From: an uncultured Desulfobacter sp.
Lineage (GTDB): Bacteria; Desulfobacterota; Desulfobacteria; Desulfobacterales; Desulfobacteraceae
Direction of reading: 5' to 3'
Assembly (NCBI GenBank): GCA_963665095.1
Contig: OY762069.1
Coordinates: 800,001 to 864,000 of the forward strand
Length of the DNA: 64,000 bases
Every line of letters starts with the position of its first letter. Positions within the stretch are counted from its first letter, which is position 1. The notes beneath the pieces were generated by a model. That model was not told where the DNA came from. It did no database searches and saw nothing but the letters and a program-made list of their open reading frames with translations. Positions 3,492 through 26,026 of this stretch are shown one piece after another. Position numbers and translations under genes: made by a program.

Positions 3492-3875
3492 ATGCCGCCA
3501 GCTGCACGTGTGTCAGATTTAGTATTACAGGATAATCCCCATTGCCATGCCCCCATTCATCCACCGGCTCCGGTCCCGGCCACAGTACCTCATCCCGCAG
3601 TGCCGCTGGCTATTGTCAAAGGAGCCACCACGGTCTTTATCGGTGGATTACCGGCAGCCACGGCTACCAGTACAACAGCCCCGTGTACCCCGGCCGGATG
3701 TACACCTGCAGGCCCCGGTGTTGTGGCCAAGGGTTCTGCCACCGTTTTTGTGCAGAATCTGCCTGCTGCACGGGTTAATGATACCACAGCCCATGCCTCC
3801 TGTGTGGCACCGGTTCCGGGGGCGACCGGGAAGATTCTCCCTCCGGGATGTTTAACTGTGATGATCGGAGGATAA
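3492..3875 (+). CDS. PAAR domain spike-tip protein
   Basis: PAARVSD, PAATATS, PAARVND motifs; His/Cys metal ligands; ends TVMIGG. Confidence 0.92.
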   Translation: MPPAARVSDLVLQDNPHCHAPIHPPAPVPATVPHPAVPLAIVKGATTVFIGGLPAATATSTTAPCTPAGCTPAGPGVVAKGSATVFVQNLPAARVNDTTAHASCVAPVPGATGKILPPGCLTVMIGG

Positions 3876-3900
3876 TGCCATCAATCCAGTCCATTTTGAC

Positions 3901-5010
3901 ATGCTTAAGCCGGTCTGCCCCCTGTGCCGGAAAGATGGACGGGGTGAAAACAGGCTTGAGATTTATCAGGTTTTAAAGCAAGATGACGGGGATATAGACC
4001 AGGGGATTCTGACCTGCACCCACCCTCAGTGCCGGTGCGAATACCCGATTATTGATGGTGTCCCGGTCATTGTGGCTGATATAAGGCACTATGTCACCCA
4101 CAGTGCCTATCCCATTATCAGACGAAACGATCTATCGGAGTCTCTGGAATCTCTTATAGGCGACTGCATGGGACCGGGGTCGGTGAATGACCTGATGCGT
4201 CAGCATTTAAGTTCCTACGGGTATGATCATTATGAAGGTATGGATTCCGGTGCCTCAGTCACTGATGACCGGGCCAAAAGAGATGGGCCGGCTGACGGTG
4301 TGCCTGGGCCGGGGGCCTGCGCAGGACTGATGCTCAGAAATCTGGAAGGGATGAACGCAGCCTCCTCGGGCCCGATAATTGACCTTGGATGTTCAGTGGG
4401 GCGGACTACTTTTGAGGTGGCACGATATTTTAAAGAGCTTACCCTTGGTATTGATTTGAATTTTAATATGATCAAAGCTGCGGCCAGTGTCTTGAAAACA
4501 GGCTTTTTTAGCTACCCTAAACGAAAAACCGGCATGGTATATGAACAAAGGTGCATCAAGACCCCGTTCAAAGCAGAGAAAAACGTTGATTTCTGGGCCT
4601 GCGATGTGTTGAATCTGCCGTTTTCCCGGAATCAATTCGGTTTCGCCGTCAGCATGAACCTGCTGGATTGTGTGTCAGAGCCGTTTTCTTATCTTCAGGA
4701 GGTGGAACGTATACTAAAGCCGGGTGGTCAGGGCCTGATGTCAACGCCCTATGACTGGAATACAAATGCCGTGCCTGTGGAAAACTGGCTGGGTGGGCAC
4801 TCACAAAGAGCTGAGTCAGGGGGGCGCAGCGAAGTGATGATCCGCTCCCTTTTTGCCGGTGGCAGTCATTCCCATGCATTAAAACAGCTTGGCCTGGTAT
4901 ATGAAAAAGAAAATCAGCCGTGGCCGGTAAGGGTTCATGAACGCAGTACCATGCAGTATCTGGTTCATGTGATGGGCATTGAGAAACACAATAAGGGGAC
5001 AGGGGAATGA
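3901..5010 (+). CDS. Class I SAM-dependent methyltransferase with N-terminal Trm112-like Zn-ribbon
   Basis: CPLC...LTCTHPQC..YPIIDGVP N-terminus; IIDLGCSVGR SAM motif; DVLNLPF; LKPGG. Confidence 0.85.
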   Translation: MLKPVCPLCRKDGRGENRLEIYQVLKQDDGDIDQGILTCTHPQCRCEYPIIDGVPVIVADIRHYVTHSAYPIIRRNDLSESLESLIGDCMGPGSVNDLMRQHLSSYGYDHYEGMDSGASVTDDRAKRDGPADGVPGPGACAGLMLRNLEGMNAASSGPIIDLGCSVGRTTFEVARYFKELTLGIDLNFNMIKAAASVLKTGFFSYPKRKTGMVYEQRCIKTPFKAEKNVDFWACDVLNLPFSRNQFGFAVSMNLLDCVSEPFSYLQEVERILKPGGQGLMSTPYDWNTNAVPVENWLGGHSQRAESGGRSEVMIRSLFAGGSHSHALKQLGLVYEKENQPWPVRVHERSTMQYLVHVMGIEKHNKGTGE

Positions 5011-5348: not shown

Positions 5349-6248
5349 ATGGATGAATTTAAAATGGCACCACAAGTAGAATCATCTGCCGGCACCCTTA
5401 GAATTCAAAAGAAAATATCAGGACGAATACATGATTTTGATTTGATCTCCTTGGTACGGGTGTTGTGCCATATCGGTTATGCCATGGAGGAGATCATATT
5501 TGAAAGTGACAACAGTCTGTGCTCCCAGGCAGGCTTGATTCAGCAGGTCCGATTTTTAAAGGACCCTACAAAACAGGTAATTATCAGCCTTAATATGGGC
5601 CTTTTAAGCGCACAATCCCCGCTGCCCAGCTATTTCCAGAAAAATATCGATAAAAGCCTGATGGATGTGACGGCATTTTACGAATTCATTGGTTACTTTG
5701 ACCATATACTGATGTTTCAGTTTTTAAAATCTGTTTATCCTGAATTGAATCTGAATCCCGCCTTTGATTTACAGTCCCTTAAAGAAACGACCCTTGGCAT
5801 GCTGGATATAAAGTGCCTGACAACTTTGGACTGGCTTTTCAGGCTGGTTTTTCCGGAGCTTGAGGTCCGTGTTGAAAAGGGGTTGGTTCTAAGGCAGGTG
5901 ACCATGGTGCCGTTGATTCTGGGTAAGGCTGTTTTAGGAGAAAACAGTGTGTTTGGGGACCAGACGAAAATAATGGTATCAGGCCGAAATGTTACGTTAT
6001 TTTCCATGGACGAATTGAGTGATTTGGGAAAGCCTTGGCCCAAAGAAATTAAAGAACGTCTTAAGTCGCATATTTTTCCAATTTTGAGGAACATGGGCGT
6101 AGATCTTCAGGTATCGTTAGTTATAGAATCCCAGAAGCAGTGGGCCCGACTCCATACTGATACGTATCTTGGGTATGATAAAATTACCGGCGGCACCGAG
6201 CAATACAAGCGGATTCGGATATTTAAGGGACATCTTTCCCCGAATTGA
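5349..6248 (+). CDS. tssG: T6SS baseplate subunit TssG (IglJ-like)
   Basis: LNMGLLSAQSPLPSYF and FIGYFDH motifs of the TssG family; T6SS context. Confidence 0.75.
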   Translation: MDEFKMAPQVESSAGTLRIQKKISGRIHDFDLISLVRVLCHIGYAMEEIIFESDNSLCSQAGLIQQVRFLKDPTKQVIISLNMGLLSAQSPLPSYFQKNIDKSLMDVTAFYEFIGYFDHILMFQFLKSVYPELNLNPAFDLQSLKETTLGMLDIKCLTTLDWLFRLVFPELEVRVEKGLVLRQVTMVPLILGKAVLGENSVFGDQTKIMVSGRNVTLFSMDELSDLGKPWPKEIKERLKSHIFPILRNMGVDLQVSLVIESQKQWARLHTDTYLGYDKITGGTEQYKRIRIFKGHLSPN

Positions 6249-6584: not shown

Positions 6585-7763
6585 ATGGATTGGCGTCAGT
6601 TAGATATCGAATTCCAGGTTTCTGAAGATCCGGGATTGGGAACCCTTGATCCACGGTTTGTTGAGATCGCCGGAATGATTCAGGAGAGTAATTTCTCTGC
6701 TGCGGCCCGGCAGGCCCAGGAGGTTATTGAGGAAGAAATATACGATATCAGGATTATCAGTTACTTTCTCTACGGGGTTTTCGATGAACAGGGGCCAGGC
6801 TCTCTTTACGGTATTTTAAAGGTATTATCCAATGTGCTTACCCAGAACTGGGATGCCGTCGGCCCTTTAAAAAATCGCGAAAAGCAAGTAAAAAACAGTT
6901 TAACCTGGTTTTTCAAGCAGACAAATAAAGTGCTGGAAACACAGGAGAAAAAAGAAGGCCCGGAATGGGGAAAATGGCTTAGTGAAACGGCTTCAGACGA
7001 TATACATGAAGCCATTGAAATGGGGAACGATTTCAAGGCAAATGCAGGCCGTACCCTTGAAGATCACGCCTCAGCGATTATTGATCAGGTGGCCAGGACC
7101 CTGGCATGGCTTGACAGTTTTTACCGACTGATTTACCAGGAAGAGCCTGATGCAAGTGAAGAGGAAGAGGCTGATTTTGATTCGGAGGAAGATGCCGATG
7201 ACCCTGAATCGCCGGACGCCTTCGAAGAAGATACAAGGCCTTACACCAATGAGCAGTCTGCTGCAGGGGGATCATGGCCTGGTGTTGGTCAGGCAGACAA
7301 CACAGGCGGCGGCTCATATTTGCTCCAGCAGCTTATCAGGAAGATGGCCCTGTTTGAGCGCCTTCTTGCAGAAAATAAAAATACCGGTGCGGCCCTGGTG
7401 GCTGATGACATCAATAATATTCTGGCTGATTTTGACCCCCAGGTCTATTTCCCGGAAATTTTTTCCGGTTTTGCCATGCAGTACGCATTGAATGTCGAAA
7501 AAATACTTCCCTTTCAGGGATGCCAGAATTCACCGGTGTGGCAGGCCGCAGACAACCTCTACCGGGTAGATATGGAGCGTTTTGCTGCAATGAATAATGG
7601 ATTCCACAATCAGGAACCAGACGCCTTTGCCAGGTCTGACTCATATGCACAAGAAGATGCCGGTAACCCAACTAGCTACAATCAGGATAACTATAATCAG
7701 GATCAAAACGGTTACGATGTTGAAGAGGATTATTATGGGGAAGATGAGGATGACGACTTTTAA
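6585..7763 (+). CDS. T6SS IglI-family / TssA-like protein with acidic low-complexity tail
   Basis: ImpA_N-like N-terminus (LDPRF..I, YDIRIISY), FDPQVYFPEIF C-domain; first gene of T6SS operon. Confidence 0.65.
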   Translation: MDWRQLDIEFQVSEDPGLGTLDPRFVEIAGMIQESNFSAAARQAQEVIEEEIYDIRIISYFLYGVFDEQGPGSLYGILKVLSNVLTQNWDAVGPLKNREKQVKNSLTWFFKQTNKVLETQEKKEGPEWGKWLSETASDDIHEAIEMGNDFKANAGRTLEDHASAIIDQVARTLAWLDSFYRLIYQEEPDASEEEEADFDSEEDADDPESPDAFEEDTRPYTNEQSAAGGSWPGVGQADNTGGGSYLLQQLIRKMALFERLLAENKNTGAALVADDINNILADFDPQVYFPEIFSGFAMQYALNVEKILPFQGCQNSPVWQAADNLYRVDMERFAAMNNGFHNQEPDAFARSDSYAQEDAGNPTSYNQDNYNQDQNGYDVEEDYYGEDEDDDF

Positions 7764-7904: not shown

Positions 7905-8414
7905 ATGAATTGTAAAGGCTGTGGTAAAGAAATTTGTGGCGATGATTTCCGGAAAGTCGCAGACTGGTATTTTTGCCAGGACTGCTTTCAGGGGCTTATG
8001 CAGCCTTCTGATTCAGACACTGAATCCGGTGCCTCTCAGGATGCCAGCGGGGCAGGGGGGCATGATGCTTTGTCCGATACTGAAAACAGCCAGATTTCGA
8101 GACAAAATGTGAAAAAAAAGAGTTGCGAAGTCTGCCAGGCTGAATTAGAGGAAGGTAGCGGGAAAAAGTTAGGCATCTGGCTGCTTTGCGATACCTGCTT
8201 CAACGATATGAATGCCTCAGTAAGACCAGATACCCCTGAGCCGGAGAGCGCTGAGGCGGATCTTGAGGAAGAGACAGATGAAACAGACAGCCGTCCCCCC
8301 GTTGATATGAATAAAACCATTCCATGCCATTCCTGCGGTCGCGTAATACTGGCGGTTGGAGCCAAAGAAGAAGATGGGCAGTATTTTTGCCCGGATTGCT
8401 ACTACAAAAAATAA
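7905..8414 (+). CDS. Cys-rich protein with three CxxC...CxxC zinc-finger-like units
   Basis: CKGC..CQDC, CEVC..CDTC, CHSC..CPDC separated by acidic linkers. Confidence 0.75.
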   Translation: MNCKGCGKEICGDDFRKVADWYFCQDCFQGLMQPSDSDTESGASQDASGAGGHDALSDTENSQISRQNVKKKSCEVCQAELEEGSGKKLGIWLLCDTCFNDMNASVRPDTPEPESAEADLEEETDETDSRPPVDMNKTIPCHSCGRVILAVGAKEEDGQYFCPDCYYKK

Positions 8415-10259: not shown

Positions 10260-12860
10260 GTGATAATTGAAAATTTTTCAATGAAAGCCCAGGGTGCCAT
10301 TGAAAGTGCCTGTCGTCTGGCCGTTAAAAAAGAACATCAGAATGTCACCCCCTGGCACATGCTGGCCGGGATACTTGAATTTGAGCAGGGCAAGGCTGTG
10401 GCGCCCCTGTTCGAGAGTGCCGGTGTGGATGCGTCGTCCCTTGAAAACCGGATCAATTCCCATCTGTTAACCCTTGCCAAGGCCTCTTCCGACAGCCAGG
10501 AAACGCCCATGAACCGTGAGCTGGAAAAAATATTTATCCGGGCGGAAGAGGAGGTGGATGCCTCAGGGGATAAATATATCGGCATGAGCCATATCCTTCT
10601 GGCCATGCTGGAGAACAAAGACATTGCAGAGGCTTTTCAGGAAGCCGGTGCCGGCAAGGAGGCCTTTTCAAAGGCATTAAAGGAAGGTGGAAAGGGGTTT
10701 GGCAAAGGCGGCAAGCTGTCCCAGGATTTTGAATATCTCAACACCTATACCACGGATCTGACGGCCCGGGCCAGGGAAGGCGGGTTTGACCCCATTATCG
10801 GCCGGGACAATGACATCCAGCTCATTGTCCAGGTATTAAGCCGCAGAATTAAAAGCAACCCGGTGGTCATTGGCGAGCCTGGTGTGGGGAAAACAGCCAT
10901 TGTGGAGGGCCTGGCCCAGCGCATTGCAAAAAAAGAGGTGCCCAAGGATCTGGAAAATGTCACCATCCTGGCCCTGGATATGGGCCAGCTTCTGGCTGGG
11001 GCCAAATTCAGGGGCGAGTTTGAAGAGCGCTTCAAACGGGTGATCCAGGAGATCACCGATGCCGGGGATATCATTTTATATATTGACGAGCTTCACATGA
11101 TTGTCGGCGCCGGCGGTGGTTCAGAAGGGGCCATGGATGCGGCCAACCTGCTGAAACCCGCACTGTCCAGAGGCGAGATCCGGTGCATGGGCTCCACCAC
11201 CCTGGAAGAGTATCGCAAGTATATTGAAAAGGATACGGCCCTGATGCGACGGTTTCAGACGGTCATGGTGGCAGAACCCACGGTGGATGAAACCCTGACC
11301 ATTCTTCGGGGCATCAAGGAAAAATATGAAATGCACCACGGTGTCCATATCATGGATTCAGCGCTCACCGCGGCAGCCAAGCTTTCCCACCGCTATATAA
11401 CAGACCGGTTCCTGCCGGATAAAGCCATTGACCTCATCGACCAGACCGCAGCCACAGTCCGTATAGAGCTTGCCTCCAAGCCCAAAGAAATTGAGGCCCT
11501 GGACCGTAAAATTGTCCAGCACAAAATAGAGCTTCGTGCCCTGGAAAATGAGACCGATGAAAAAATGGTCGCAAAAATGGAAGAGACCCGTGCCATCCTG
11601 TCGGAACTTGAAGCGGAAAGCGGGAAACTGACTGAAAAATGGGAAAAAGAGAAAAATGCCATTACTGCCGTTCAGGAAGCTACCAGGGAACTCGAGGCTG
11701 CCAGAAAAGAGTTGGAAGTCAAGATTGCCGAAGAGGATTTCGCCCGGGTGGCCGCCCTGCAGTATAAGGTGATCCCCAAACACGAAAAGATCCTTGAAGA
11801 GTATGCAGATATTGATGTGTCCGATTCAAAATTTGCCGCCAGGGGCATCACGGACCAGGATGTGGCCGGCACCGTGGCTGAACTCACAGGTATCCCTGTC
11901 TCCAAAATGATGGGTGAGGAAAAAGACCGGCTGATTCATCTGGAGGAACATCTGCAGAAACGGGTCAAGGGCCAGGATCACATCACCGAAGTCATTGCCA
12001 AGGCCGTGCGGCGGGCAAGAGCCGGGGTCCAGGATGCCCAGCGCCCCATGGCCTCCTTTCTCATGCTCGGCCCCACCGGCGTGGGCAAAACCGAGCTTGC
12101 CAAGACACTGGCTGAGTTCATGTTCAATGACGAAGCCGCCATGATCCGTTTTGACATGAGCGAATTTATGGAAAAACACTCTGTGGCACGGCTGGTGGGA
12201 GCCCCTCCCGGATATGTGGGCTATGATGAAGGCGGCCTTCTGACCAACAAAGTTCGGCGCAAACCCTATTCCGTTATTTTGTTTGACGAGGTGGAAAAAG
12301 CCCATCCTGATGTGTTTAACCTCTTCCTTCAGCTTTTTGACGACGGAAGGCTCTCAGACAGCCAGGGTCAGGTGATTAATTTCACCAATACCATTGTGAT
12401 TATGACATCCAACCTGGGTGCAGATCATATTGCCCCGGTTGAAACCGAGGAAGAGGAAAAGGCCATGAATCAGGCGGTGATGGAGGCTGTCCGTTCCCAT
12501 TTCCGGCCAGAATTTCTGAACCGGCTGGATGATATTCTCATGTTCAAACAGCTCACCATGGAGGTGATGAAGCCCATCGTCAATATCCAGCTTGCAAGGC
12601 TTGAAAAACTTCTGGCCGATAAACAGATCAGTCTTCATGTGGCAGAGGAGGCCAAGGAGCTTCTGGCAAAGGAAGGCTATAATCCGTTATATGGTGCAAG
12701 GCCTTTGAAACGCGTGATTCAGAGCCGTCTGCAGGATCTTCTGGCAGAAAAAATTATTCAGGAGGAGATCAAAGAAGACCAGACTGTGTACGTATCAACC
12801 CAGGATGACGATCTTGTGATTAACACGGATGAACCCGCGGAATCGGAAGAAATTCAGTAA
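10260..12860 (+). CDS. clpB: ClpB-type AAA+ ATPase, T6SS-encoded (TssH role)
   Basis: GTG start with GGAGG RBS; Walker A GEPGVGKT and [27 protein letters not shown]; full coiled-coil M-domain; TAATG coupling to tssM. Confidence 0.9.
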
Positions 12861-15800
12861 TGAAACTGATAAAAAAAATATTTGCCAATCCTTACGTCAA
12901 AAAGGTATTGCCCTCAGATCCCTGGGTGCTGGCAGCGGTGATCGCCGTTGCCATTCTTCTGGGACTACTGATTTACCTGATTATAAAGCGCAGGAAAAAG
13001 GCAAAGGATCCGGCACCTGAAGCAAAGGAAAAGCAGGATTTTCTCAAACCCAACAGCCTGGTTCGTGTGTGGAAGAATTTTTTAAGGGATGTGCCTGTCC
13101 GTTTCAGGCGGTCCATACTCATGTACCAGCCATATATTGTCATGGGTGAGGCCGGCTCCGGTAAAAGCCAGCTCATTAACAACTATTCCGACTGGAAAAA
13201 TCAGGCCAATCAGTTCTATCCCAGCCGCACCCAGGACGATCTGCTGCAGATTTACCTGGGGTCAAGGGTGCTTGTGCAGGAGATATCTGCTGTCCTGCTC
13301 CACGATATTTCTGCCCCCACAAGAAAGGCACTTGTTAACCTGTGGAAACGGTTCAGACATAAAAACAACCTGACAGTTGTCATTACCCTGAAAGGCGAAG
13401 ATCTGATCCATAAAGACCCTGATGAATTCAAGGCCCAGGCCCAGATGCTCCGGGGTAAGGTCAATGTCTTATCTGAGATCATCAGGCAGCCTGTTAAAGT
13501 TAAAATTGCACTGACGTTTATGAACAGGGTGCAGGGGTTTTCTGAATTCTCAGCATTTATGAATAAAAACCAGGCCCCCTTTGAGTTTGATATCAAAAGC
13601 CAGGGTGATTTAAAGGGCCTGGCAAATTTAATGGCCCCCTACGACGCCTTTATTTCCAACGCCCTGGTGTCGGCACCAGCAAAGGATTACCTGAATATCC
13701 TGGCGTTTTACCGGAAGGCGCCCAAACTTTTGGCCGGACTGGAACGGTTTATTCACACGTTTACAGACCCGGAGCCTTTGTCTGTCTCCCCGCAGATCTG
13801 CGGTGTGTTTTTTACAGACGATTCCCCCCTTGAGGACAGGCCCTATTCCAATCCTTTGCAGAATCAGGTCTCCATTAAAACTGTCCGGGAATACCATCCC
13901 TTAAGAAAACATCAGTGGATTGCGGCCGGCATTGCGATTGCCGGTACCCTGTTTCTCGCGTTTTCATATACATATAAAGACCGGCAGGTTCGTGAGATGA
14001 TGGACAGCCTGGACCGTATCAGTTTTGATGCAATAAAGACCGGTGCCCCGGTCAGCAGGGATACCTGCCTGGCCCAGGCAGAACTGCTGATGTCAAATAT
14101 GGAGAAACTGTCTGCCCGGAAACTGGATGACCGGTTTATTGTTGATTTTTTCCCGGACGCCAAAGACAGGATTGATAGGCGGGTTGCCCGGACCAGGCAC
14201 TCCCTGCAGGAACAGTTGATTAAAAGAGTATTTATGCCGGAACTTGTGTTGCTTGAGAACCGGCCGGATGCCCATAACAAAAACCTGATGTTACTGGGCT
14301 TAATCTATGCGTCAGGCACCAATCAGCTCGGAAAACTTATTGAGAACAACCTTAATCTCTGGTGCCGGATCTGCAATCTGCCTGAAACGGTTATTTCCGA
14401 ATATATCCGGCTGAACCCGCGCGCATGGGACAGAAAAATAAGCATCCAGGGATTTCTCAAACCGGCAGCAGGAACAGCCGAGACCATTAAAAATCAGTCC
14501 TGGGTGCTGTTTCTTAAAAAAATTGAAAAAGTGATCAACCAGACCCATGTCAGTCCAAGAAATCTGGCCCGGCTTCAAAAACAGGCAGCGTCACACTGGA
14601 CTGAAGTTGAAGAGAGTCTGACCGCTGACTGGTTTGCCAAGGTGTCAACACTGTTATCCAGGGAAACGGTTTTAGCAGATGATATGCAGTCATTGGAATC
14701 ATCCGTCAGTAAAAACGATTTAGGGCGGTTCCAGACATTTTTAGCCTATTTCCAGGGCCTGGCCATTGTCTACCCCGATGTGGCGCATATGACCATTGCC
14801 CAGCTTTTCGAGCGGCTTGAAGGAATGATGGCGTTTAAAAGTCCGGATAAGGAAGAATTCCAGTTCCGGGTCAATGAACAGTCCTGGTATTTTAACTCGG
14901 ACGACTTCACCCTGCTTATGACCAAGAGCAGTATGGTTCAACTGTTAGGTGAATACGTCGCCACCCACGGCCGTCATCCCGGACTTGCCTTTTTCCAGGA
15001 CCGGGAGGGATATGAAGATCTTGTGGTGGATATATCATCGGATGATAATTTTTATTTTTCCAAACGCACGGTGATTGACGGGCGATATACCCGGGATGTA
15101 TATGATTCCGAAATCAAACCCATACTTTCCGAGCTGCCGGCCCTTCTGGATAAACTGCCGGTGAGCCGGGCTGATAAAGGCCATTTTTCAAGTTTTATGT
15201 CCAGGGAGGTGGCGGCCTATATTAACGCCTATCTTTCTGCCTATGAGAACTATTATAAAGGATTTCGCATCCATGCGGATTCTGTGGGAGAGCTGCGGTA
15301 TATGCTGACCCAGATGAGCCTGCCTCTATCCCAGTTCCAGGAATTTTTAATGGTTATCAATGATAATATATCCCTGGATCTCGGAGACAACTCCTATTTC
15401 AGTCTGATTAAAAACAGGATGCGTCCCTTACGGTTTATCTCTTTGCTCATGCAGGCAGACAAAGATCAATATCCTGAGTTTGAAAAGTATAAAGCCATTT
15501 TAAGACAGATCAATGAAGACCTGGTGGCCCAGGATGCACCGGAAGAGGCAACTGAAGAAAACGGGGAGGACCTTCAACTGCTGAAGTCGCGCCTGTCTGC
15601 CGTGGGAAGGATCAGCCTTGATATTTTTCTGGACAGGCCTGAATCCTATTATAAAATGGTCAGAAAATGGTCCGTAAGTGTGGGGATTCCTGAAAATTGG
15701 CTTTATCCTTTTACCGAGCCTGTGATTCAGGCATATCTCATCGGTCGGGAGCAGATCGAAAAAAGCGTTGCCGGTCAGTGGCAGACCCTGTCCCGGACCT

Positions 15801-16471
15801 ATATTGACCCGGTTTTAGCCTGCTTTCCATTTAATCCGGACAGTCCCACGCCCGTTTCTTTGGCGGCAATGACCGCCCTTGCATCGCCAAACAAGGACTT
15901 CTGGAGCAGGTTTTCAAGCGGAATTCGTCCTTTTTATAAAAAAGGGCCTGACAATAAATGGAAGGCCCGGACCTTTGACAAAGGCCGTTTGAACCTGCCC
16001 GGCGAAATTGTCCCACGGATCAATTTCATCAGCACGCTGACCCGGACCTTTTTTGATGAAAACGGCCTGCCTGCACCGCTTTATTTGTCTGTCAAACCCG
16101 AACCTCTGCCACCGGTTGAGGAAGATATGCTGTTTGTGGTGCTGTCATATCTTAGATCCGGAGAAAATACGGTTTTTGGCTTTAATCAGCAGCCTGTCTG
16201 GAACAAGCTCAAGCTTCCATGGTGGGAAGAGCTCGACGCCAGTGTCGGGGCGGAATTCATGAAGAAACTGGATAAACCGGAAAAAAGTTACGCACAGGTC
16301 AGTGTACCCCGCTCTTTTTTCAGTTTTTACAGACTGCTGCAAAAAGCGGATACGTCTGAACCCGGGAAGTGGATGTGGGCCATTGAAAGTCCGGGTGAGG
16401 TGCCCTGGAAGCGGGCCATTACATTTACCATAAAACAGGACCCATGGGCGTTTTTTAAACCGGCAGAATAA
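12860..16471 (+). CDS. tssM: T6SS membrane complex TssM/IcmF (PdpB-like)
   Basis: 1203 aa; N-terminal TM, Walker A GEAGSGKS, second TM (WIAAGIAIAGTLFLAFSY), large periplasmic region; context. Confidence 0.75.
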   Translation: MKLIKKIFANPYVKKVLPSDPWVLAAVIAVAILLGLLIYLIIKRRKKAKDPAPEAKEKQDFLKPNSLVRVWKNFLRDVPVRFRRSILMYQPYIVMGEAGSGKSQLINNYSDWKNQANQFYPSRTQDDLLQIYLGSRVLVQEISAVLLHDISAPTRKALVNLWKRFRHKNNLTVVITLKGEDLIHKDPDEFKAQAQMLRGKVNVLSEIIRQPVKVKIALTFMNRVQGFSEFSAFMNKNQAPFEFDIKSQGDLKGLANLMAPYDAFISNALVSAPAKDYLNILAFYRKAPKLLAGLERFIHTFTDPEPLSVSPQICGVFFTDDSPLEDRPYSNPLQNQVSIKTVREYHPLRKHQWIAAGIAIAGTLFLAFSYTYKDRQVREMMDSLDRISFDAIKTGAPVSRDTCLAQAELLMSNMEKLSARKLDDRFIVDFFPDAKDRIDRRVARTRHSLQEQLIKRVFMPELVLLENRPDAHNKNLMLLGLIYASGTNQLGKLIENNLNLWCRICNLPETVISEYIRLNPRAWDRKISIQGFLKPAAGTAETIKNQSWVLFLKKIEKVINQTHVSPRNLARLQKQAASHWTEVEESLTADWFAKVSTLLSRETVLADDMQSLESSVSKNDLGRFQTFLAYFQGLAIVYPDVAHMTIAQLFERLEGMMAFKSPDKEEFQFRVNEQSWYFNSDDFTLLMTKSSMVQLLGEYVATHGRHPGLAFFQDREGYEDLVVDISSDDNFYFSKRTVIDGRYTRDVYDSEIKPILSELPALLDKLPVSRADKGHFSSFMSREVAAYINAYLSAYENYYKGFRIHADSVGELRYMLTQMSLPLSQFQEFLMVINDNISLDLGDNSYFSLIKNRMRPLRFISLLMQADKDQYPEFEKYKAILRQINEDLVAQDAPEEATEENGEDLQLLKSRLSAVGRISLDIFLDRPESYYKMVRKWSVSVGIPENWLYPFTEPVIQAYLIGREQIEKSVAGQWQTLSRTYIDPVLACFPFNPDSPTPVSLAAMTALASPNKDFWSRFSSGIRPFYKKGPDNKWKARTFDKGRLNLPGEIVPRINFISTLTRTFFDENGLPAPLYLSVKPEPLPPVEEDMLFVVLSYLRSGENTVFGFNQQPVWNKLKLPWWEELDASVGAEFMKKLDKPEKSYAQVSVPRSFFSFYRLLQKADTSEPGKWMWAIESPGEVPWKRAITFTIKQDPWAFFKPAE

Positions 16472-16496: not shown

Positions 16497-16958
16497 ATGA
16501 AAGTATCCACAACAGTTTACCGCTTACGATGTGCAAAGATGTTCCGGATATCAGGAGCAGTCATGGTGCTGACGTTCATGCTTTTGATAGGCATAGGGTG
16601 CGGGGCAAAGCAGCCGGTGTTGAAATTCCAGGTGAAGTCAGATGAGACAGTTAACAACGGCCAGCCTGTTTATATCGTCATCCGGACGGTTACCCCCAGT
16701 GATTTTGTCTCTCAGGATTATCAGAGTGTGGCCTCCATGGTCATGCAGAACCCTCCGGATAAAACCGTTGTATTCACGCAGCTGATCCTGCCGGACCGCA
16801 AAATTAAATTTAAAGTGAATAAGCCGGATAACCAGTCCCTGGCTGTGTACTGCATGTTTACCGAGCCTGACCCTGCGCAATGGAAGGTGTTTTTACAAAA
16901 ACCCCTTGAAAAGAAATATAAATTTATCCTGGAAGAGAACAATCTATTATTAAAATAG
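16497..16958 (+). CDS. tssJ: T6SS lipoprotein TssJ (IglE-like)
   Basis: Lipobox IGIGC; NNGQPVYIVIR, F..QDYQSV, LAVYCMF, WKVFL match the TssJ fold pattern; follows tssM. Start may be downstream. Confidence 0.7.
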   Translation: MKVSTTVYRLRCAKMFRISGAVMVLTFMLLIGIGCGAKQPVLKFQVKSDETVNNGQPVYIVIRTVTPSDFVSQDYQSVASMVMQNPPDKTVVFTQLILPDRKIKFKVNKPDNQSLAVYCMFTEPDPAQWKVFLQKPLEKKYKFILEENNLLLK

Positions 16959-16991: not shown

Positions 16992-18698
16992 ATGACCCAA
17001 CATTACACGCCCGAACAGCTTGCCAAAACCATGGACCTTGAGCAGTTTGCGGCGCCGACGCCCATTGCATGGCTGGAAGAGAGCTGGATTCATCCGGATG
17101 AATTCTGGCCGGCGTTATGGGCGTCTCACCAGGCAGCCATGGGTGTACCAGCCAAAAGCAGCCCTTTTGCCAGGTACGATTTTTTCCATGACCTGGTGGT
17201 CCGGAACCGGGAGCGGAAAAATCCGGCAATGATCTGGTATGATCCTTTAACCAAGCCTGATGACCCCTGGCAGCAGCTTTCATTTAAGGAGCTGGAAACA
17301 AAGGCCGGCCATATTGCCGCCGCATGGAAAGGGGCAGGGGTCAAGCCTGGTCAGGTGCTGTGTATTTTAGAGCACCCGGGGGATAAATTTTTAATACACC
17401 TTGCTGCCGGCTTGAAGTTAGGTGTTGTTCTGGCGTTTGTTCATCCAGGTCCCAGAACCTGGCTGGAAAAACAGATTGAGGCCCTTGATCCTGATTTTAT
17501 CTGTACTCAAGAGATCTATCTGTCCGAAGTTCAGCAATGGCAGGACAGGGTACTTGAACGATCCGGGCCAGGCATAGAAGACCATGTAAATTCCTACTCC
17601 TATTCGCGTGGAGAACCCGTGGCACTGATCTTTGACGCCATGTCCGAAGCACCGTTTGAACCCAGGCCTGTCAGTTCGGACCTGCTGTTTATGTGTGCGG
17701 TTCGTGACGGGTTCATGGGGTTGCGGCTCTTGGCCGGGGATATATTTACGGCCCCGGGATTTGAGACATGCCTGACCCAGCCCTGCTTTCTGCTGGCAGC
17801 CCTGGCCAACGGGAGTACCTATCTGCATCTGGATATGGCAGCCGTTGAAAATGATCCGTTGCTGCTCACCCGCTATCCTTTAAAAGTATTGGGAATCTGC
17901 CGGCAACTGCGTAATGTCCTTATGCAAAATCCCGTGGGCAAGGTGAAAATCTGGGATTCCTGGTTCCGGGACCCTGCCCAGGCTTCGGATATGGATGTAT
18001 GGGATCATTTTATCAAGAAACTGGCGCTGGAGGATGTACCTGCCGGTACCATGGTGTGGAATGCGGCTTTGGGCGGCTGTATCCTTTTTTCAAGACGGCG
18101 CAAGGGCCAGGCCCTGCAGAATGTGCTGCCCTGTGCCGGAAGATGCTGGCACAAAGCCATGCCGGCAAAGGCAGAGATTCCTGCGCTGGACGGTTTCGGC
18201 CTGTTATCTGTGGCAGCAACGCTGGATAACTTGGCAGAGGAATACTGTGCCAGTCCCTGTTTTCTGGCTGCCACCTATCTGGAGGATATTTTTCTGAAGC
18301 TGGATTTGCCGTCACGATATGGCTCTTTTTATCCGGGAGAGGTGGTTGAGGGGGTTGTGAAAAAAATTCCCGGATGCCGGGATTCGGTCATTGCAGAAGT
18401 GCCTGTGACCGGGAAGGGGGTGTTTTCAGAATTTCACCTGCTGGTTTTTTCAGCAAGGTTCCGGCCGGAAGACCTGGCAAAGACTGCTGAAAATTTAAGA
18501 CAGGCCATTGGGTTAGAGATAGGGAAAAAGTTTTTGCCTGACCAGATTAAATTTTTTCCCCTGGTGCCCCGCAGAGATGAGAACAATGAAGTTGACCGGG
18601 TGTGGTCTGTTGAACAGTATCTGTACGGCGGGCTTGAGCAGAAATCAAAGGATGCTGTTTTTCTGGGAATATCCAGATTAAGAGCGTTAATAACTTAA
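16992..18698 (+). CDS. AMP-binding (acetyl-CoA synthetase-like) fold protein with degenerate catalytic motifs
   Basis: SWIHPDEFW, PAMIWYD, LSFKEL, GVKPGQVL, KLGVV and FLPDQIKFFPLVPRR resemble ACS; P-loop and catalytic Lys motifs absent. Confidence 0.7.
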   Translation: MTQHYTPEQLAKTMDLEQFAAPTPIAWLEESWIHPDEFWPALWASHQAAMGVPAKSSPFARYDFFHDLVVRNRERKNPAMIWYDPLTKPDDPWQQLSFKELETKAGHIAAAWKGAGVKPGQVLCILEHPGDKFLIHLAAGLKLGVVLAFVHPGPRTWLEKQIEALDPDFICTQEIYLSEVQQWQDRVLERSGPGIEDHVNSYSYSRGEPVALIFDAMSEAPFEPRPVSSDLLFMCAVRDGFMGLRLLAGDIFTAPGFETCLTQPCFLLAALANGSTYLHLDMAAVENDPLLLTRYPLKVLGICRQLRNVLMQNPVGKVKIWDSWFRDPAQASDMDVWDHFIKKLALEDVPAGTMVWNAALGGCILFSRRRKGQALQNVLPCAGRCWHKAMPAKAEIPALDGFGLLSVAATLDNLAEEYCASPCFLAATYLEDIFLKLDLPSRYGSFYPGEVVEGVVKKIPGCRDSVIAEVPVTGKGVFSEFHLLVFSARFRPEDLAKTAENLRQAIGLEIGKKFLPDQIKFFPLVPRRDENNEVDRVWSVEQYLYGGLEQKSKDAVFLGISRLRALIT

Positions 18699-18738: not shown

Positions 18739-19266
18739 ATGGCGATTCAGGATGAAATACCAAAATCCAGGTTAACCTTAAGGTACAAAACAGAGGTGAA
18801 CGGCCAGCCCGAAGACTTGACCCTGCCCATGCGGTTTCTGGTTACAGGTGATTTCTCCCAGGGCTCTTCCAAAGACCGCAAGGTGGATCTCGATGAGAGA
18901 AGTACCCGTAACATGAATGGGAAAAACACCGATGCCATAATGAAAGATATGGGAATTCGCCTTAATTACGCGGTTTCCAATAAAATCAATCCGGACCAGG
19001 AGGAGGATCTCCAGGTGGATCTGCCCTTTACCGGCATGAGATCTTTTTCTCCGGATGAGGTGGCCAAGAATGTGCCCAAAATCAAGGGACTGCTCAAGCT
19101 CAAGGAGCTTTTGGAAGAGGTGGTGTCCAATGTGGACAACCGCAAAGGGTATCGCAAACTGCTTGGTGAACTGATGGCGGATGAAGAGGCCTTGAAAAAG
19201 ATGATGGAAGAGCTCAAAGAGTTTGAGAGCTTTAAACTGCCTTCTGCAGGCGCAAAAACTGAATAA
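18739..19266 (+). CDS. tssB: T6SS contractile sheath small subunit TssB (IglA-like)
   Basis: IPKSRLTLRY...LPMRFLVTGDFS...FSPDEVAKNVP; GGAGG RBS. Confidence 0.95.
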   Translation: MAIQDEIPKSRLTLRYKTEVNGQPEDLTLPMRFLVTGDFSQGSSKDRKVDLDERSTRNMNGKNTDAIMKDMGIRLNYAVSNKINPDQEEDLQVDLPFTGMRSFSPDEVAKNVPKIKGLLKLKELLEEVVSNVDNRKGYRKLLGELMADEEALKKMMEELKEFESFKLPSAGAKTE

Positions 19267-19292: not shown

Positions 19293-20789
19293 ATGGCTGA
19301 TACAGATCAGACAACCGAAACCCAGGAAGCCATAGATCTGAAACGGTTTCTGTCCAGCATGCGCCTCAATACGGAGGTGGCTGATCCTACCCCCATGATT
19401 ACAGACAACCTTGAAACTATTATTGAGGATGTCAGTGAGGAAAACCGGTTTATCTCCGGGATGGCGGCATTCCTGTTCAATGTGGACACCTCTTCCGGAC
19501 GTTTGGACAAGGGGGCTATTTTTGAAGTCATTGCCCGCATTGACACCATGGTCAATGACCAGGTCAATGAGATCATTCAGAACGACCAGTTCAAGGCCCT
19601 GGAGTCCAACTGGCGCTCTTTGAACGATCTGATCCTCAACACCAACTTCAAGGCCGATGTCATGATCGATATTCTGGACGTGACCAAGGAGGAGCTGTTT
19701 GAGGATTTTGAAAGCAATGCCGTGGACATCACCGGCAGCGCCCTGTTTCAAAAGGTTTACATTGCAGAGTATGACCAGTACGGTGGAAAACCCATGGGCT
19801 CCATTCTCGGGCTGTATGAATTTGAACATACCCCGGATGATGAGTTCTGGCTTAGAATCATGGGCAAAGTTGCCGCAGCAAGCCATGCGCCTTTTGTGGG
19901 ATCGGTCTCCCCGAAATTTTTCGGCTGCGATTCCGTAAAGGAACTGGACGCGATCAAGGATCTTGAAGGTCTGATGAACCATCCAAAATACGGCTCCTGG
20001 AATAAGCTTCGGGAATCCGAAGAGGCGGCTTATATCGGGTTGACGCTTCCCCGGTATATTGCCCGGCTCCCCTATGATCCGGAAAGCAACCCCTGCCGGG
20101 AAATTAATTTCACTGAAAAGGTGACCGGAGATAACGACAAAGATTACCTGTGGGGCAGCGCAGCTGTCCTGTTTGCCCAGAACATGGTCAGGTCCTTTGA
20201 AACCTCGGGCTGGTGCCAGTATCTCAGAGGCCCCAAAGGCGGCGGCCTGGTCAGCGGGCTGCCGGTTCACATGTTTAACATCCGGGGTGAAGACGAGATG
20301 AAGGTACCTGTGGAGATGGTGATCCCGGATTACAGGGAACTGGAGTTTGCCAACAGCGGATTTATTCCTTTGATTTACCGCAAGGGCACCGCTGATGCCT
20401 GCTTTTTTTCCTGCCAGTCCATAAAGAAACCCAAAAAGTTCAAAGATCCCAAGGACAGTGAGAATTCCCAGCTGGTTACCAACCTGTCCTACACCTTTTC
20501 CATCACAAGAATTGCCCATTATCTCAAATGCATCATGCGTGATAACATCGGCAGCTCTGCAGATGCGGCATACATTAAAAACAGCATTGAAAACTGGATT
20601 TCAAAGTATGTCACCACCGTGGTAAATCCTGATGATCTGACCCTGAAATACTATCCGTTCAAGGCATACTCCGTAAATGTTGAGGAACGCGAAGGCATGA
20701 TCGGCTGGTATGACTGCTCGGTTGGTATTCTGCCCCATATCCAGTTTGAAGGCATGGACGTGGAGCTGCGACTGGATGCCAGATTGTAA
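19293..20789 (+). CDS. tssC: T6SS contractile sheath large subunit TssC (IglB-like)
   Basis: FKALESNWRSL, EYDQYGGKP, AAASHAPF, RLPY, YLWGSAA, RIAHYLKCIMRDNIG, PHIQFEG. Confidence 0.97.
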   Translation: MADTDQTTETQEAIDLKRFLSSMRLNTEVADPTPMITDNLETIIEDVSEENRFISGMAAFLFNVDTSSGRLDKGAIFEVIARIDTMVNDQVNEIIQNDQFKALESNWRSLNDLILNTNFKADVMIDILDVTKEELFEDFESNAVDITGSALFQKVYIAEYDQYGGKPMGSILGLYEFEHTPDDEFWLRIMGKVAAASHAPFVGSVSPKFFGCDSVKELDAIKDLEGLMNHPKYGSWNKLRESEEAAYIGLTLPRYIARLPYDPESNPCREINFTEKVTGDNDKDYLWGSAAVLFAQNMVRSFETSGWCQYLRGPKGGGLVSGLPVHMFNIRGEDEMKVPVEMVIPDYRELEFANSGFIPLIYRKGTADACFFSCQSIKKPKKFKDPKDSENSQLVTNLSYTFSITRIAHYLKCIMRDNIGSSADAAYIKNSIENWISKYVTTVVNPDDLTLKYYPFKAYSVNVEEREGMIGWYDCSVGILPHIQFEGMDVELRLDARL

Positions 20790-21524: not shown

Positions 21525-22766
21525 ATGACAGATAATCTTGCTCGGGTAAAATGGGAAATGGGGCAAACCCTTCTGCCTGTTCACTTCAGGGCCCAGGAAG
21601 ACGCCCTGCTTGCGGAATCCGTATTGCGGTTCCGGATGCAGGGCCTTCCGGCCTATGGTGTGGCTGAGCTGGTATGGAGTCCCACCCTGATTAAGGACGG
21701 GGTGGTTTCCGTCCAGTCTCTGACGGCTGTTTTTCCCTCGGGGTTGATGGCTCAGGTGCCGGGAAATGCCAAAGTCTCCCCTTTCAACCTCAATGTGCCG
21801 GGTGATGTAACCGTTGGGCTCTACTGCCATCTGATGGTGGACAAAGGCCAGGAAGAGAATGTGGATGAAACCTGGGACACCGGGGAGGAAAAGGATGTTA
21901 CCAGACACCATTACACCTTGGCTTTAACCTCGGAGCAAAGCACGTCAGGGGCACTTGAGACGCTGAAACTGGCCCAGTTCAAAAAAATGCCGGACAATAC
22001 CTGGCAGCTTTCCAAAGAGTATATCCCCCCGCTGCTTCAGGTGGGACTTTCTCCGTTTTTGCAGGATGCTTTGGAGGCGCTCAGCCAGGCCCTGGAACTG
22101 TTTCATTACAATCTGGCCCTGGATGCATCCGGATTCCTGTCCGGAGAAAGCCTTCAAAATGTTAAACAATGTATGAAAAGCAGCCTGAAAATGCAGCGGA
22201 CCATTGCCAATATCAATGGGCAGATTCACTGTCATCCCTATTTTCTTTATGAAATTCTGGCTGAGTTTTATACCGAGGTGAGCTATTACCGGAAAGTGGT
22301 GCCGGAAAATGTCACAGAACCCTACCGGCATGAACAGCTGGCAGCCTGTTTTGACCGGTTGCTTACGCCGTTGATGAAACAAATGCAGATGATGGAGGAA
22401 AAATCTCCCTATCTTGCGTTTGAATTCAAAGACGGGGTGTTCCGTCTGGATCTGCCTTCGGAAATCCGGGAAGCCAGGGATGTCTATTTTCTGGCCCAGA
22501 AAGGTCATGTTACAGACAAGGTGGACGTGTCCGGCATCAAGCTTGGCAGTTTTGCCCGCATCGGGTTAATCCACAAAATGGCCCTGCCGGGGGTGCCGTT
22601 GAAAAAAACGGAAAAACCGCCTTTTCAGCACTCATTTGGTTCCGAGGTGGATTTTTTCAGGGTTGTGGAGGGTGAGGAGTGGGACCAGGCACTGAAGGCG
22701 CTCTCCCTGGCCTTTTACCACCAGGATATGTATACCGGGATTGAGTTCTTCCTGTACTGGAGATAA
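21525..22766 (+). CDS. tssK: T6SS baseplate subunit TssK (IglD-like)
   Basis: RVKWEMGQTLLPVHFRAQE, YIPPLL, HPYFLY, PYRHEQL, ALPGVPL. Confidence 0.9.
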   Translation: MTDNLARVKWEMGQTLLPVHFRAQEDALLAESVLRFRMQGLPAYGVAELVWSPTLIKDGVVSVQSLTAVFPSGLMAQVPGNAKVSPFNLNVPGDVTVGLYCHLMVDKGQEENVDETWDTGEEKDVTRHHYTLALTSEQSTSGALETLKLAQFKKMPDNTWQLSKEYIPPLLQVGLSPFLQDALEALSQALELFHYNLALDASGFLSGESLQNVKQCMKSSLKMQRTIANINGQIHCHPYFLYEILAEFYTEVSYYRKVVPENVTEPYRHEQLAACFDRLLTPLMKQMQMMEEKSPYLAFEFKDGVFRLDLPSEIREARDVYFLAQKGHVTDKVDVSGIKLGSFARIGLIHKMALPGVPLKKTEKPPFQHSFGSEVDFFRVVEGEEWDQALKALSLAFYHQDMYTGIEFFLYWR

Positions 22767-22777
22767 GTCGTTCATCC

Positions 22778-23155
22778 ATGGCATTGTTTAAAAAATTTAT
22801 GATCAAAGAGGACCCTACCTGGGACGGGAGCAGAGATATTGTGGATAATTTGAACAATATCCTGAACACCAAAAAAGGGTACGGATCCATCCTTGACGAT
22901 TATGGCATCAGGGATTTGAACGAGTTCAGGGACAAGGAGGGTATCACTGATGTCATCGTGGAGGAAGTGATCCGGTGCGTTGCCAAATATGAGCCCCGGG
23001 TTAAAATTATCCAGGTGGACAAAGAGAAAGGCAGCGGACTCTTTCAGCTTTCATTCAATATTCAGTGCATGATCAGGGAGACCCGTCAGAGCATGAATAT
23101 GGTATTTGATACCGTGGGCAGCCAATTTACGATAAAAAAAGGGAAAAACAGGTGA
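22778..23155 (+). CDS. tssE: T6SS baseplate subunit TssE (gp25-like)
   Basis: LNNILNT, DYGIRD, YEPRV motifs. Confidence 0.9.
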   Translation: MALFKKFMIKEDPTWDGSRDIVDNLNNILNTKKGYGSILDDYGIRDLNEFRDKEGITDVIVEEVIRCVAKYEPRVKIIQVDKEKGSGLFQLSFNIQCMIRETRQSMNMVFDTVGSQFTIKKGKNR

Positions 23156-23752: not shown

Positions 23753-25363
23753 ATGGAAATGGATGAACAGTTATACCGGGCATTTCTTGAGCAGATGCAT
23801 GAACTTGATAATTTTCGTATGGAATACGCGTCCCGGCATCCGTCTGCCCCTCTGGACCGGGATGACCCCGATGTCAAACGCCTGGTGGAGGCCATGGCCT
23901 TTTTTTCCGCCCGGACCCACATGGCTGGTCTGGATAATATTGTAGCGTCCCGGCTCAGAATTTTTCAGCAGTTTTTCCCTTTTCTGCTCTCACCCTTGCC
24001 TGCCATGGGAATGGTTCAGGCACAGCCGACAGGCCAGTTTTCAGAAACTGCGCTGCTACCCAGAGAGACCCGGTTCCTGGTCTCTTCGCCCAAAGGTGAC
24101 GGGTGGGTCTGCCGTACCATGAAAGATCTTAGAATCCTTCCTGTTTTTTTAACGGAGACAAAACTTCTGATGCGCCCCAATAAGGGGTACCGCATGATAA
24201 TGGCCTTTGAATCCGGATATGAAAGGGCAGACACCATAGGGAAGATAGCGGTTTACCTGGATCATTTAAACAGTTACCAGGCCTCTTTAATGTTGTTTGA
24301 TGCCTTGAAAACCAACTTGGTCCGCGCTTCTGTGGTATTTGATAAAAAAACGGATGAGCAGATTATCGGCATGCCCTGTGAGGTATCGTTCGGCACCTTG
24401 CCGGATGAAGAGGCCCTTGATCAAAGAAAGATGCATCCGCTTCAGCAGGCAAGAACTTTTTTTCATTTTCCCTGGCAGGAACTGGTCATGACCATTGATG
24501 TGCCCCAGACAAACCTGGCCTGGAAAAAATTTTATGTTTGTCTGGATCTGTCTGATAAATGGCCGCGTAAACTGCCTGTTAATAAAGATGTATTCCGGCT
24601 GCACACAGTGCCTGTGGAAAATATAAGCCGGGAATCCACAACACCGATTGTATATGAAGGCACAAAAGAGCGGTTTCTGATCCGCCATCCTGATCCGACA
24701 CTGGGGTTTGAGCTTCAGACTATTCTTGGGGTATATAAAATCAGGGATGGGGGTATGGTGCCGGTTAAGCCGGGTATTTTGTCCGGGGGTGAGGGCACAT
24801 ATGAGATTTCACAGAAAACAGATTCGGTCAAAGGCAGCCGTTACTGGCTGTGCATGCACGACCCTTCTGCGTTTGTTGAACCGGTTACAGTGGTCCTTGA
24901 CGGATTGTGGCACCAGCCTGACTTTTCTCGGAATTTTTCACAGATGCTTAAAACACGGCCATACAGCCGGACCATTGCAGGCGTGAATTGGGATTTGTGC
25001 GAAAATATGGTCAGATCCCTGCAAAACCGGTTTCAGGAAAATATGGATGAATATATTCACCTGCTTACCATTAAAAATAAATCTGCCTTGAATTTTGATG
25101 ATATCTGTGCCCTTATTCAAATGCTGGGCACCGTGTGGCAGGGAGATTATAAACCGGTAAAAGACCTGTTTTACGCAGTGAGGGTGGAGCAGGCTCCGAG
25201 AGCCGGCGGTTTGCTTAAACAGATTTACCATCTTCGGTTCAGACATTGTGAACCCGTCACCCTTCCGCTGGTCAGCACGTTTACCCAAAAGCTTGGACGG
25301 ATTCTGGATGTGTGGATTTCAGAAGTGGTTGTTGAAACCCGTATGGAGATGGATAGGGCATAA
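23753..25363 (+). CDS. tssF: T6SS baseplate subunit TssF (IglH-like)
   Basis: DDPDVKRLVEAMAFFSART, FPFLLSPLPAM, FFHFP, FRLHTVPVEN. Confidence 0.9.
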   Translation: MEMDEQLYRAFLEQMHELDNFRMEYASRHPSAPLDRDDPDVKRLVEAMAFFSARTHMAGLDNIVASRLRIFQQFFPFLLSPLPAMGMVQAQPTGQFSETALLPRETRFLVSSPKGDGWVCRTMKDLRILPVFLTETKLLMRPNKGYRMIMAFESGYERADTIGKIAVYLDHLNSYQASLMLFDALKTNLVRASVVFDKKTDEQIIGMPCEVSFGTLPDEEALDQRKMHPLQQARTFFHFPWQELVMTIDVPQTNLAWKKFYVCLDLSDKWPRKLPVNKDVFRLHTVPVENISRESTTPIVYEGTKERFLIRHPDPTLGFELQTILGVYKIRDGGMVPVKPGILSGGEGTYEISQKTDSVKGSRYWLCMHDPSAFVEPVTVVLDGLWHQPDFSRNFSQMLKTRPYSRTIAGVNWDLCENMVRSLQNRFQENMDEYIHLLTIKNKSALNFDDICALIQMLGTVWQGDYKPVKDLFYAVRVEQAPRAGGLLKQIYHLRFRHCEPVTLPLVSTFTQKLGRILDVWISEVVVETRMEMDRA

Positions 25364-25393: not shown

Positions 25394-26026
25394 ATGGAAC
25401 CCGAACTTTGGAAAGCCATTCAAGTCCTGTTTGCCACCATGGAGAGAGCCTTTGGCTTTAGAGAGGCAGATTGGGATTCTGACAATCCGTCTGATATCCA
25501 GATAGACCCGGAAAACCTTATCAAAGCCCGCTCCGAGATCCGGAAGGGGTTTGATGATCTCAGGATTACTTTATTGGGGAGCCTGTCCGAGCAGGAGACC
25601 TATCAGGTTCTTTTCCCTTTGGTTGTCTATGTGGATGAACTGGTTCAGGCCAGGTATTTTGGAAACAGACAGGTCTCATGGCCCCTGCTTCAAATGGAGC
25701 TTTATGAGGTGGATGACGGTGGCCGCCTGTTCTATGACACCCTGGATTCCATCCTGAAAAAACCCCAGACCTCCCAGTTTGTGTATGAAGTTCATTATTT
25801 TTGTCTGAAACACGGCTTTGAGGGAAAATATGTGGCAGACCCTGTCCGGATCAACAAATACCTGGAGCAGCTTAAGGAAAAGATTGCCATCTCTGACATG
25901 GACAGGATAGAAATTATGGCTGAAGAGACCGGGGAGATGAAATATTTTGCTTCTCCCGTATGGCTCTATGCCGGAGTGCTGATCTGTTTAATCCCGGTAT
26001 ACTGTCTGTTTAAGTTTCTGGCATGA
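25394..26026 (+). CDS. tssL: T6SS TssL/DotU
   Basis: VVYVDELV, WPLLQMELY..DDGGRLFY, EVHYFCLKHGFEGKY, C-terminal TM, no OmpA domain. Confidence 0.92.
   Translation: MEPELWKAIQVLFATMERAFGFREADWDSDNPSDIQIDPENLIKARSEIRKGFDDLRITLLGSLSEQETYQVLFPLVVYVDELVQARYFGNRQVSWPLLQMELYEVDDGGRLFYDTLDSILKKPQTSQFVYEVHYFCLKHGFEGKYVADPVRINKYLEQLKEKIAISDMDRIEIMAEETGEMKYFASPVWLYAGVLICLIPVYCLFKFLA

Follow-up and report, generated by a model that had tools for sequence, protein, structure and literature searches.

The T6SSii of Francisella, encoded on the FPI, is among the described systems closest to the locus reported here. It comprises an IglA/IglB sheath, a spike formed by PdpA and a short VgrG, and the proteins IglG, IglE and IglI. 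T6SSii is stated to be exclusive to Francisella in the available part of a 2026 article (PMC12955703), and the accessible portion of another reports homologues of IglG, and partly of IglI, outside Francisella, with most other FPI genes confined to close relatives (PMC7431613). The excerpts available of PMC5014421 describe an iglF gene between vgrG and iglG whose product binds IglG (also PMC5349215), a binding that requires the N-terminal helix of IglG, and describe IglF as unique to the FPI when compared with the second F. novicida island. IglF is a protein of 67.9 kDa (available part of PMC5924787, Table 3), and deletion of iglF leaves approximately one sheath assembly per 400 cells (available part of PMC5481754).

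The window, i.e. the whole stretch of 64,000 nucleotides analysed here, contains a T6SS gene cluster in which a gene for a protein of 568 amino acids begins 33 nt after the tssJ/iglE stop and ends 40 nt before tssB (Table 1). The initial annotation had regarded this protein as a catalytically dead member of the acetyl-CoA-synthetase (ACS) fold. Recomputed coordinates and gaps were the same, and the ACS-like landmarks on which that reading was built were found at their places in the ORF.

Table 1. Features of the T6SS gene cluster and eroded motif positions of the pseudo-enzyme (window coordinates)
Feature	Position	Strand	Evidence or remark
126-aa ORF, weak DUF3540 similarity	3101..3481	+	E 0.0013, below cut-off
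Canonical PAAR	3492..3875	+	PF05488
SAM methyltransferase	3901..5010	+	accompanies PAAR gene
TssG-like	5349..6248	+	PF06996, E 3.7e-5, just under cut-off
IglI family	6585..7763	+	NF041244, 280 bits (cut-off 100); ImpA_N/TssA-like N-terminus
Cys-rich putative zinc-finger protein	7905..8414	+	kept in Desulfobacterales clusters
PdpA-like spike hub, 549 aa	8515..10164	+	sole PDB match of its profile: Francisella PdpA 6u9e_A, E 1.5e-7
ClpB-like unfoldase	10260..12860	+	1113 bits as ClpB, 771 bits as ClpV, neither reaching its cut-off
TssM/IcmF-like	12860..16471	+	
TssJ of IglE type	16497..16958	+	PF22361 (IglE_N), 78 bits, over cut-off
ANL/acetyl-CoA-synthetase-fold pseudo-enzyme, 568 aa	16992..18698	+	profile-profile alignment and structure model
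Eroded A3 P-loop position, residues 212-227	17625..17672	+	family consensus LFSP..P
Eroded A5 position, residues 354-362	18051..18077	+	T-E lost, GG kept
A7-A8 region, residues 432-451	18285..18344	+	Asp of A7 gone; hairpin and hinge shorter by 17 residues
A10 position, residues 526-535	18567..18596	+	no catalytic Lys
TssB	18739..19266	+	
TssC	19293..20789	+	top PDB match Francisella IglB 3j9o, 432 bits; VipB 379; 5urw TssC 358
Tube (Hcp/IglC-position) candidate, 190 aa	20912..21484	+	position and size only
TssK	21525..22766	+	
TssE	22778..23155	+	
Short VgrG, needle only, 191 aa	23159..23734	+	profile matches Francisella VgrG 6u9e_B, positions 13-164, E 5.7e-6
TssF	23753..25363	+	
TssL/DotU	25394..26026	+	

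The fold assignment rests on profiles and a structure model, because the ANL signal is weak for the single sequence: PF00501 covers just residues 74-181, where its 29.3 bits fall short of the cut-off of 29.9, and the top match of a phmmer search of the PDB has an E value of 0.25. A 12-sequence profile searched against 1.84 billion representatives retrieved 348 clusters (50% identity level) at E <= 1e-30, the named members belonging to Desulfobacteraceae and myxobacteria. The best 150 of these, together with earlier matches, yielded an alignment (A2) of 145 near-full-length members, from which fragments and most long forms were left out. Aligned profile to profile with 18 P-loop-bearing ANL enzymes of the window's genome, A2 matches over residues 68-546 (prob 99.6, E 1.8e-24), and both the profiles and the model display the ANL topology of a large N-terminal and a small C-terminal domain. 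Together they show that the family has the ANL fold, as modelled. In a midpoint-rooted tree of 33 of the 145 members and 26 ordinary ANL enzymes, the family forms one clade with a long stem (1.29, support 0.88), which speaks for a single origin.

Adenylate-forming enzymes carry motifs named A3 (the P-loop), A5 and A7 (T-E and G-D, ligands of nucleotide and Mg), A8 (the R..D hinge and G-x-R) and A10 (the catalytic Lys). In the profile-profile alignment IFDAMSEAPFE of the pseudo-enzyme falls on YTSGTTGQPKG, VWNAALGG on WWQTETGW and PRRDENNEV on PKT-RSGKI. The P-loop position is occupied by LIFDAMSEAPFEPRPV, and the A10 position reads PRRDENNEV from residue 526 onwards, both as initially reported. 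The loose A3 pattern [ST][SG]G[ST][ST]GxPK is present in none of the 145 members and in 18 of 25 ANL controls (27 non-self matches, from which a repeated match within one ORF and a frame of 98 aa were removed); two members have [ST][SG]G in the aligned A3 stretch. Patterns for A5 and A10 occur in five members, all off the A5 site, and in four members, respectively, as compared to 18 and 14 of the 25 controls. At the aligned positions, [TS]E of A5 is found once in 145 sequences and GD of A7 never; GK near A10 is found in 12 members, and the column of the A10 Lys (K609 of Acs) holds K in 13 and E533 in P0001. Alignment to ANL/ACS enzymes thus reveals no intact A3 or A10 motif in the pseudo-enzyme, and the catalytic erosion first noticed in one ORF extends to its relatives. 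As judged from the sequences, these counts show that the family has lost the ANL catalytic motifs and with them every canonical ATP-binding motif. Relatives bear database names such as 'AMP-binding protein' and 'long-chain fatty acid-CoA ligase', which the motifs do not support, and the finding therefore corrects this label.

Other positions have been retained. In the A7-A8 hairpin and hinge 17 residues are missing, yet on the A8 side R442 (72%), G444 (87%) and E451 (73%) are partly conserved in the family, as are both glycines of the A5 GG (90% and 99% across the 145 sequences). The polar residues D67 (98%), D239 (97%), R307 (94%), S367 (94%) and D535 (92%) are conserved, likewise R238 and R527; mean column identity in A2 is 25%, and no column is invariant. 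The ratio dN/dS lies between 0.15 and 0.38 in 39 of 40 pairs, one pair being saturated and the other Desulfobacterales pairs near saturation. This indicates purifying selection, and the gene is therefore maintained and not decaying.

The T6SS setting had also been recognised in the initial annotation. The pseudo-enzyme proved to be a fixed part of the T6SS gene set, but the system is of Francisella type (T6SSii-like) and not canonical, with an IglB-like sheath and a split spike. The sheath protein TssC scores higher against IglB than against canonical TssC, and the spike consists of a PdpA-like hub and a short VgrG, the profile of which matches a canonical VgrG tail with a slightly higher score than Francisella VgrG, over a shorter stretch. 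Genes of the IglI and IglE families exceed the cut-offs of NF041244 and PF22361; NF041245 gives the IglE-type TssJ 60 bits against a cut-off of 75. The tube candidate has no PDB sequence match, and a search for PdpE, with an uninformative control, gave no match in five genomes. In a TssC tree that includes no Francisella sequence, a stem of 0.71 (a split without support value) separates 20 sequences from pseudo-enzyme-bearing clusters from 20 others of the same order; one further sequence inside the pseudo-enzyme group comes from G062, itself a carrier of the gene. Since the NCBI IglI model already scores these clusters over its cut-off, they have not gone wholly unnoticed.

Several side observations concern these clusters. 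In the window, a 112-aa protein without Pfam or NCBIfam match is encoded at 5007-5345, and also at the same place in G062 (L068). The Cys-rich protein, which has no family match over cut-off, follows iglI in Desulfobacterales clusters, mostly before the PdpA-like gene. Anti-sigma/anti-anti-sigma-like ORFs (recognised by eye) and a Cache-HAMP-SpoIIE phosphatase flank the cluster at 1362-2868 and 26050-28080, possibly forming a partner-switching regulator. The cluster of G062 (L067, L131) is without a tube gene after tssC; on another contig, a tube gene does follow a related tssC. A lone IglI-family gene lies among IS elements in a Francisella novicida plasmid record (L058:19634-20653).

Across genomes, the pseudo-enzyme co-occurs strictly with one T6SS lineage, in counts that are not independent, as many loci are close kin. 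Among 151 Desulfobacterales genomes, 51 have TssC, ten have IglI over cut-off and nine carry the pseudo-enzyme gene, all nine belonging to the ten; the tenth (G014) has neither the gene nor a match to TssC, on a contig that breaks off within the cluster. The gene was found neither in the other TssC-bearing Desulfobacterales genomes (0/42) nor in 300 further genomes of the window's phylum. In Myxococcota, pseudo-enzyme gene and PdpA-like hub occur in the same 41 of 201 genomes, and the ten genomes with two pseudo-enzyme copies give three hub matches each. The initial reading depended on homologues being linked to T6SS loci, and a synteny survey bears this out: a T6SS gene stands beside the pseudo-enzyme in all 39 GTDB loci and is present in 102 of the 107 matching locus slices, a set that includes some duplicates. 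Four of the remaining five slices stop at the 3' end of the pseudo-enzyme gene, and the fifth covers little of G116, a genome whose T6SS linkage shows further upstream.

Some myxobacterial genomes, among them Corallococcus coralloides (G155), have a second cluster of this type (L101, L104-L108, L114, L115), where the genes for pseudo-enzyme and DUF4280 stand together as a unit of two that converges on tssF. Most myxobacterial clusters, including that of G155 (L118:9455-11041), have a second PdpA-like hub gene with a longer frame at the far cluster end. Very large repeat-rich proteins are often encoded upstream of myxobacterial clusters (L004:1225-9972, L023:244-5958, L039:1654-8871).

Adjacency to tssB holds in Desulfobacterales, but it is lineage-specific, the downstream neighbour in myxobacteria being a DUF4280 PAAR-like gene. 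A DUF4280 start lies 24-76 bases after the match in 36/36 non-Desulfobacterales GTDB loci (34 labelled myxobacteria, two 'delta proteobacterium'); L102 shows no DUF4280 adjoining the gene. The order tssJ-gene-tssB is found in eight of the nine Desulfobacterales genomes (in G114 split over two contigs), G116 deviating. The order tssM-tssJ-gene-DUF4280-iglI-tssG of L037, L109, L111 and L112 suggests that this arrangement is ancestral, and tssJ upstream is a neighbour as old as DUF4280 downstream. DUF4280 is located elsewhere in the cluster in G006, G007 and G116, whereas the window, G062 and G210 keep the pseudo-enzyme and have PAAR and a methyltransferase instead, with no DUF4280 in the regions examined. 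A profile search of the window's genome, in which the control was silent, found no DUF4280 gene. The pair of PAAR and SAM methyltransferase (Zn-ribbon-like N-terminus, weak OvoA C-terminal match) was seen at 3492-5010 of the window, in L068 and in L110, three examined clusters without DUF4280 nearby, and is possibly an alternative tip module.

One protein sequence, P0136, is an in-frame natural fusion of the pseudo-enzyme with DUF4280 (67 bits). Two long members, P0148 and P0074, seem to continue out of frame into the gene that follows, and read-through artefacts therefore occur in the long-member set. A search for long fusions returned only P0098 and is weak evidence; P0098 combines half a pseudo-enzyme with Ig-like (choice-of-anchor D) repeats and may itself be such an artefact.

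On balance, we favour a role of the pseudo-enzyme as a non-catalytic assembly factor of the Francisella-type T6SS, a rigid two-domain scaffold that would help to assemble spike and baseplate. An ancestral enzyme of acetyl-CoA-synthetase type is likely to have been recruited once, before the spread of the T6SS lineage over Desulfobacterales and Myxococcota; the sequences show that it lost its chemistry, while the two-domain fold was retained. According to the model, the shortened hinge probably fixes the protein in a closed, thioester-state arrangement. Encoded once per T6SS gene cluster, it would most likely sit inside the baseplate, bound to the PdpA-like hub and to the DUF4280 or PAAR tip of the spike, help the spike to nucleate tube and sheath assembly, and perhaps leave with the spike. 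The DUF4280 gene next door in the 36 non-Desulfobacterales loci and the P0136 fusion speak for this; the clusters that have PAAR in place of DUF4280 or DUF4280 at a distance, and the equally old tssJ neighbour, speak against it. Its divergence resembles that of TssM, the PdpA-like protein and IglI (47/30/30% identity), unlike that of the sheath or ClpB. Such a role would be that reported for Francisella IglF, the gene of which is found at the corresponding place, ahead of the DUF4280 gene.

The wider FPI order, which we take to be pdpB-iglE-vgrG-iglF-iglG...iglI-iglJ, parallels tssM-tssJ-gene-DUF4280-iglI-tssG. Like iglF, the pseudo-enzyme gene lies directly upstream of the DUF4280/IglG gene, in the 36 non-Desulfobacterales loci and not in the window or other Desulfobacterales; the two proteins are similar in size, and IglF is needed for efficient sheath assembly (available part of PMC5481754). 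It is a tentative possibility that the family is a hidden IglF orthologue. In that case IglF, too, would have the ANL fold and be a pseudo-enzyme, the T6SSii lineage would possess a dead acyl-CoA synthetase as a dedicated core subunit of spike/baseplate, and T6SSii would be old, widespread in myxobacteria and sulfate reducers, and no speciality of Francisella. That IglF is unique to the FPI, as compared with the second F. novicida island, counts against orthology, as does the absence of the IglG N-terminal helix from 35 aligned DUF4280 proteins (128-aa myxobacterial). The full-text literature search found no description of IglF as an ANL-fold protein.

A position outside the spike, as a non-catalytic partner of the membrane complex (TssM/TssJ/TssL), is unlikely, even though part of the gene order speaks for it. 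Such a cytoplasmic scaffold or brake would position or gate baseplate docking. It would agree with the order tssM-tssJ-gene, which Desulfobacterales share with the divergent loci L037 and L109-L113 of myxobacteria, with retention of the gene when the tip switches from DUF4280 to PAAR, and with a divergence matching TssM. In Myxococcaceae and Archangiaceae, however, the gene stands at a distance from tssM-tssJ, as the first of a unit that includes DUF4280, and the one fusion found, P0136, is to DUF4280.

Less probable again is a metabolite sensor, a role for which the initial annotation had named acyl-CoA/AMP and carbon metabolism; the dead pocket would still bind AMP, cAMP or acyl-CoA and couple firing to the carbon or energy state. 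Acs itself has been crystallised with cAMP (title of 5jrh). Conservation of R442, G444, E451, the A5 GG, R238/D239, R307, S367, R527 and D535 would suit a ligand pocket, but the idea has little support because A5 T-E and A7 D, the AMP-contacting residues, are gone, along with A3. R584 of Acs, which has a role in CoA and appears in the titles of 2p2q and 2p20, aligns to a non-conserved site. Position 445 is S in P0001 but R in 81 of 145 members, and the shortened hinge would remove the domain rotation that a sensor would use.

That this T6SS lineage secretes the protein as a conserved effector or cargo is very improbable. Its gene adjoins or fuses with a PAAR-like domain, a usual effector arrangement (available part of PMC8651086), and IglF has been proposed as an effector (PMC5349215; available parts of PMC5014421 and PMC5924787). 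Against this stand the single copy that each cluster has in both phyla, the strict co-occurrence of gene and machine and the lack of recognisable catalytic residues; in the window, the direct tssJ and tssB flanks leave no space in which an immunity gene could adjoin. That the protein is still an enzyme, with rebuilt chemistry such as acyl transfer onto a T6SS protein, is hardly credible: several polar residues look invariant (D67, D239, R307, S367, D535), but no column is fully so, every canonical ATP-binding motif is gone, and the immediate neighbours examined include no recognisable gene for a carrier protein or a substrate.

In the full-text literature searched, which most subscription papers lie outside, we found no description of the gene family, of a T6SSii-like system in Desulfobacterales or Myxococcota, or of a metabolic-enzyme fold turned fixed part of a contractile injection machine. 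This suggests that, within that literature, the pseudo-enzyme, our proposed assembly factor, is a previously undescribed component of a known kind of system. It is an exact marker of a Francisella-like T6SS in about one fifth of the sampled Myxococcota genomes, whereas T6SSii is still held to be exclusive to Francisella in the available part of PMC12955703. Harmless cultured myxobacteria (Corallococcus, Archangium) would offer a setting in which to work out spike and baseplate building in this subtype, and the nature of IglF.

Compared with Salmonella enterica Acs (PDB 2p2f, 2p2j, 2p2q, 1pg4) and the ANL superfamily (PF00501/PF13193), the pseudo-enzyme has 10-15% identity, is without the A3, A5, A7 and A10 catalytic residues, has a hinge region 17 residues shorter and is T6SS-linked wherever flanks are readable. 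The T6SS of Myxococcus xanthus (MXAN_4800-4813) shares a phylum with most pseudo-enzyme relatives and is likewise contractile. Its TssC, which we take to be 5urw, scores below IglB against the TssC of the window. The M. xanthus cluster is canonical, with vgrG1 and tagF (available part of PMC5801462). With the T6SSii of Francisella the present system shares the IglB-like sheath, the split spike, the IglI and IglE families, a ClpB-like unfoldase and, in most clusters, a DUF4280 tip. It differs in its occurrence in Desulfobacterales and Myxococcota, in a recognisable TssE and an in-cluster unfoldase gene, in a PdpA-like protein of about 550 aa as compared to 820, and, in the window, in a canonical PAAR tip.
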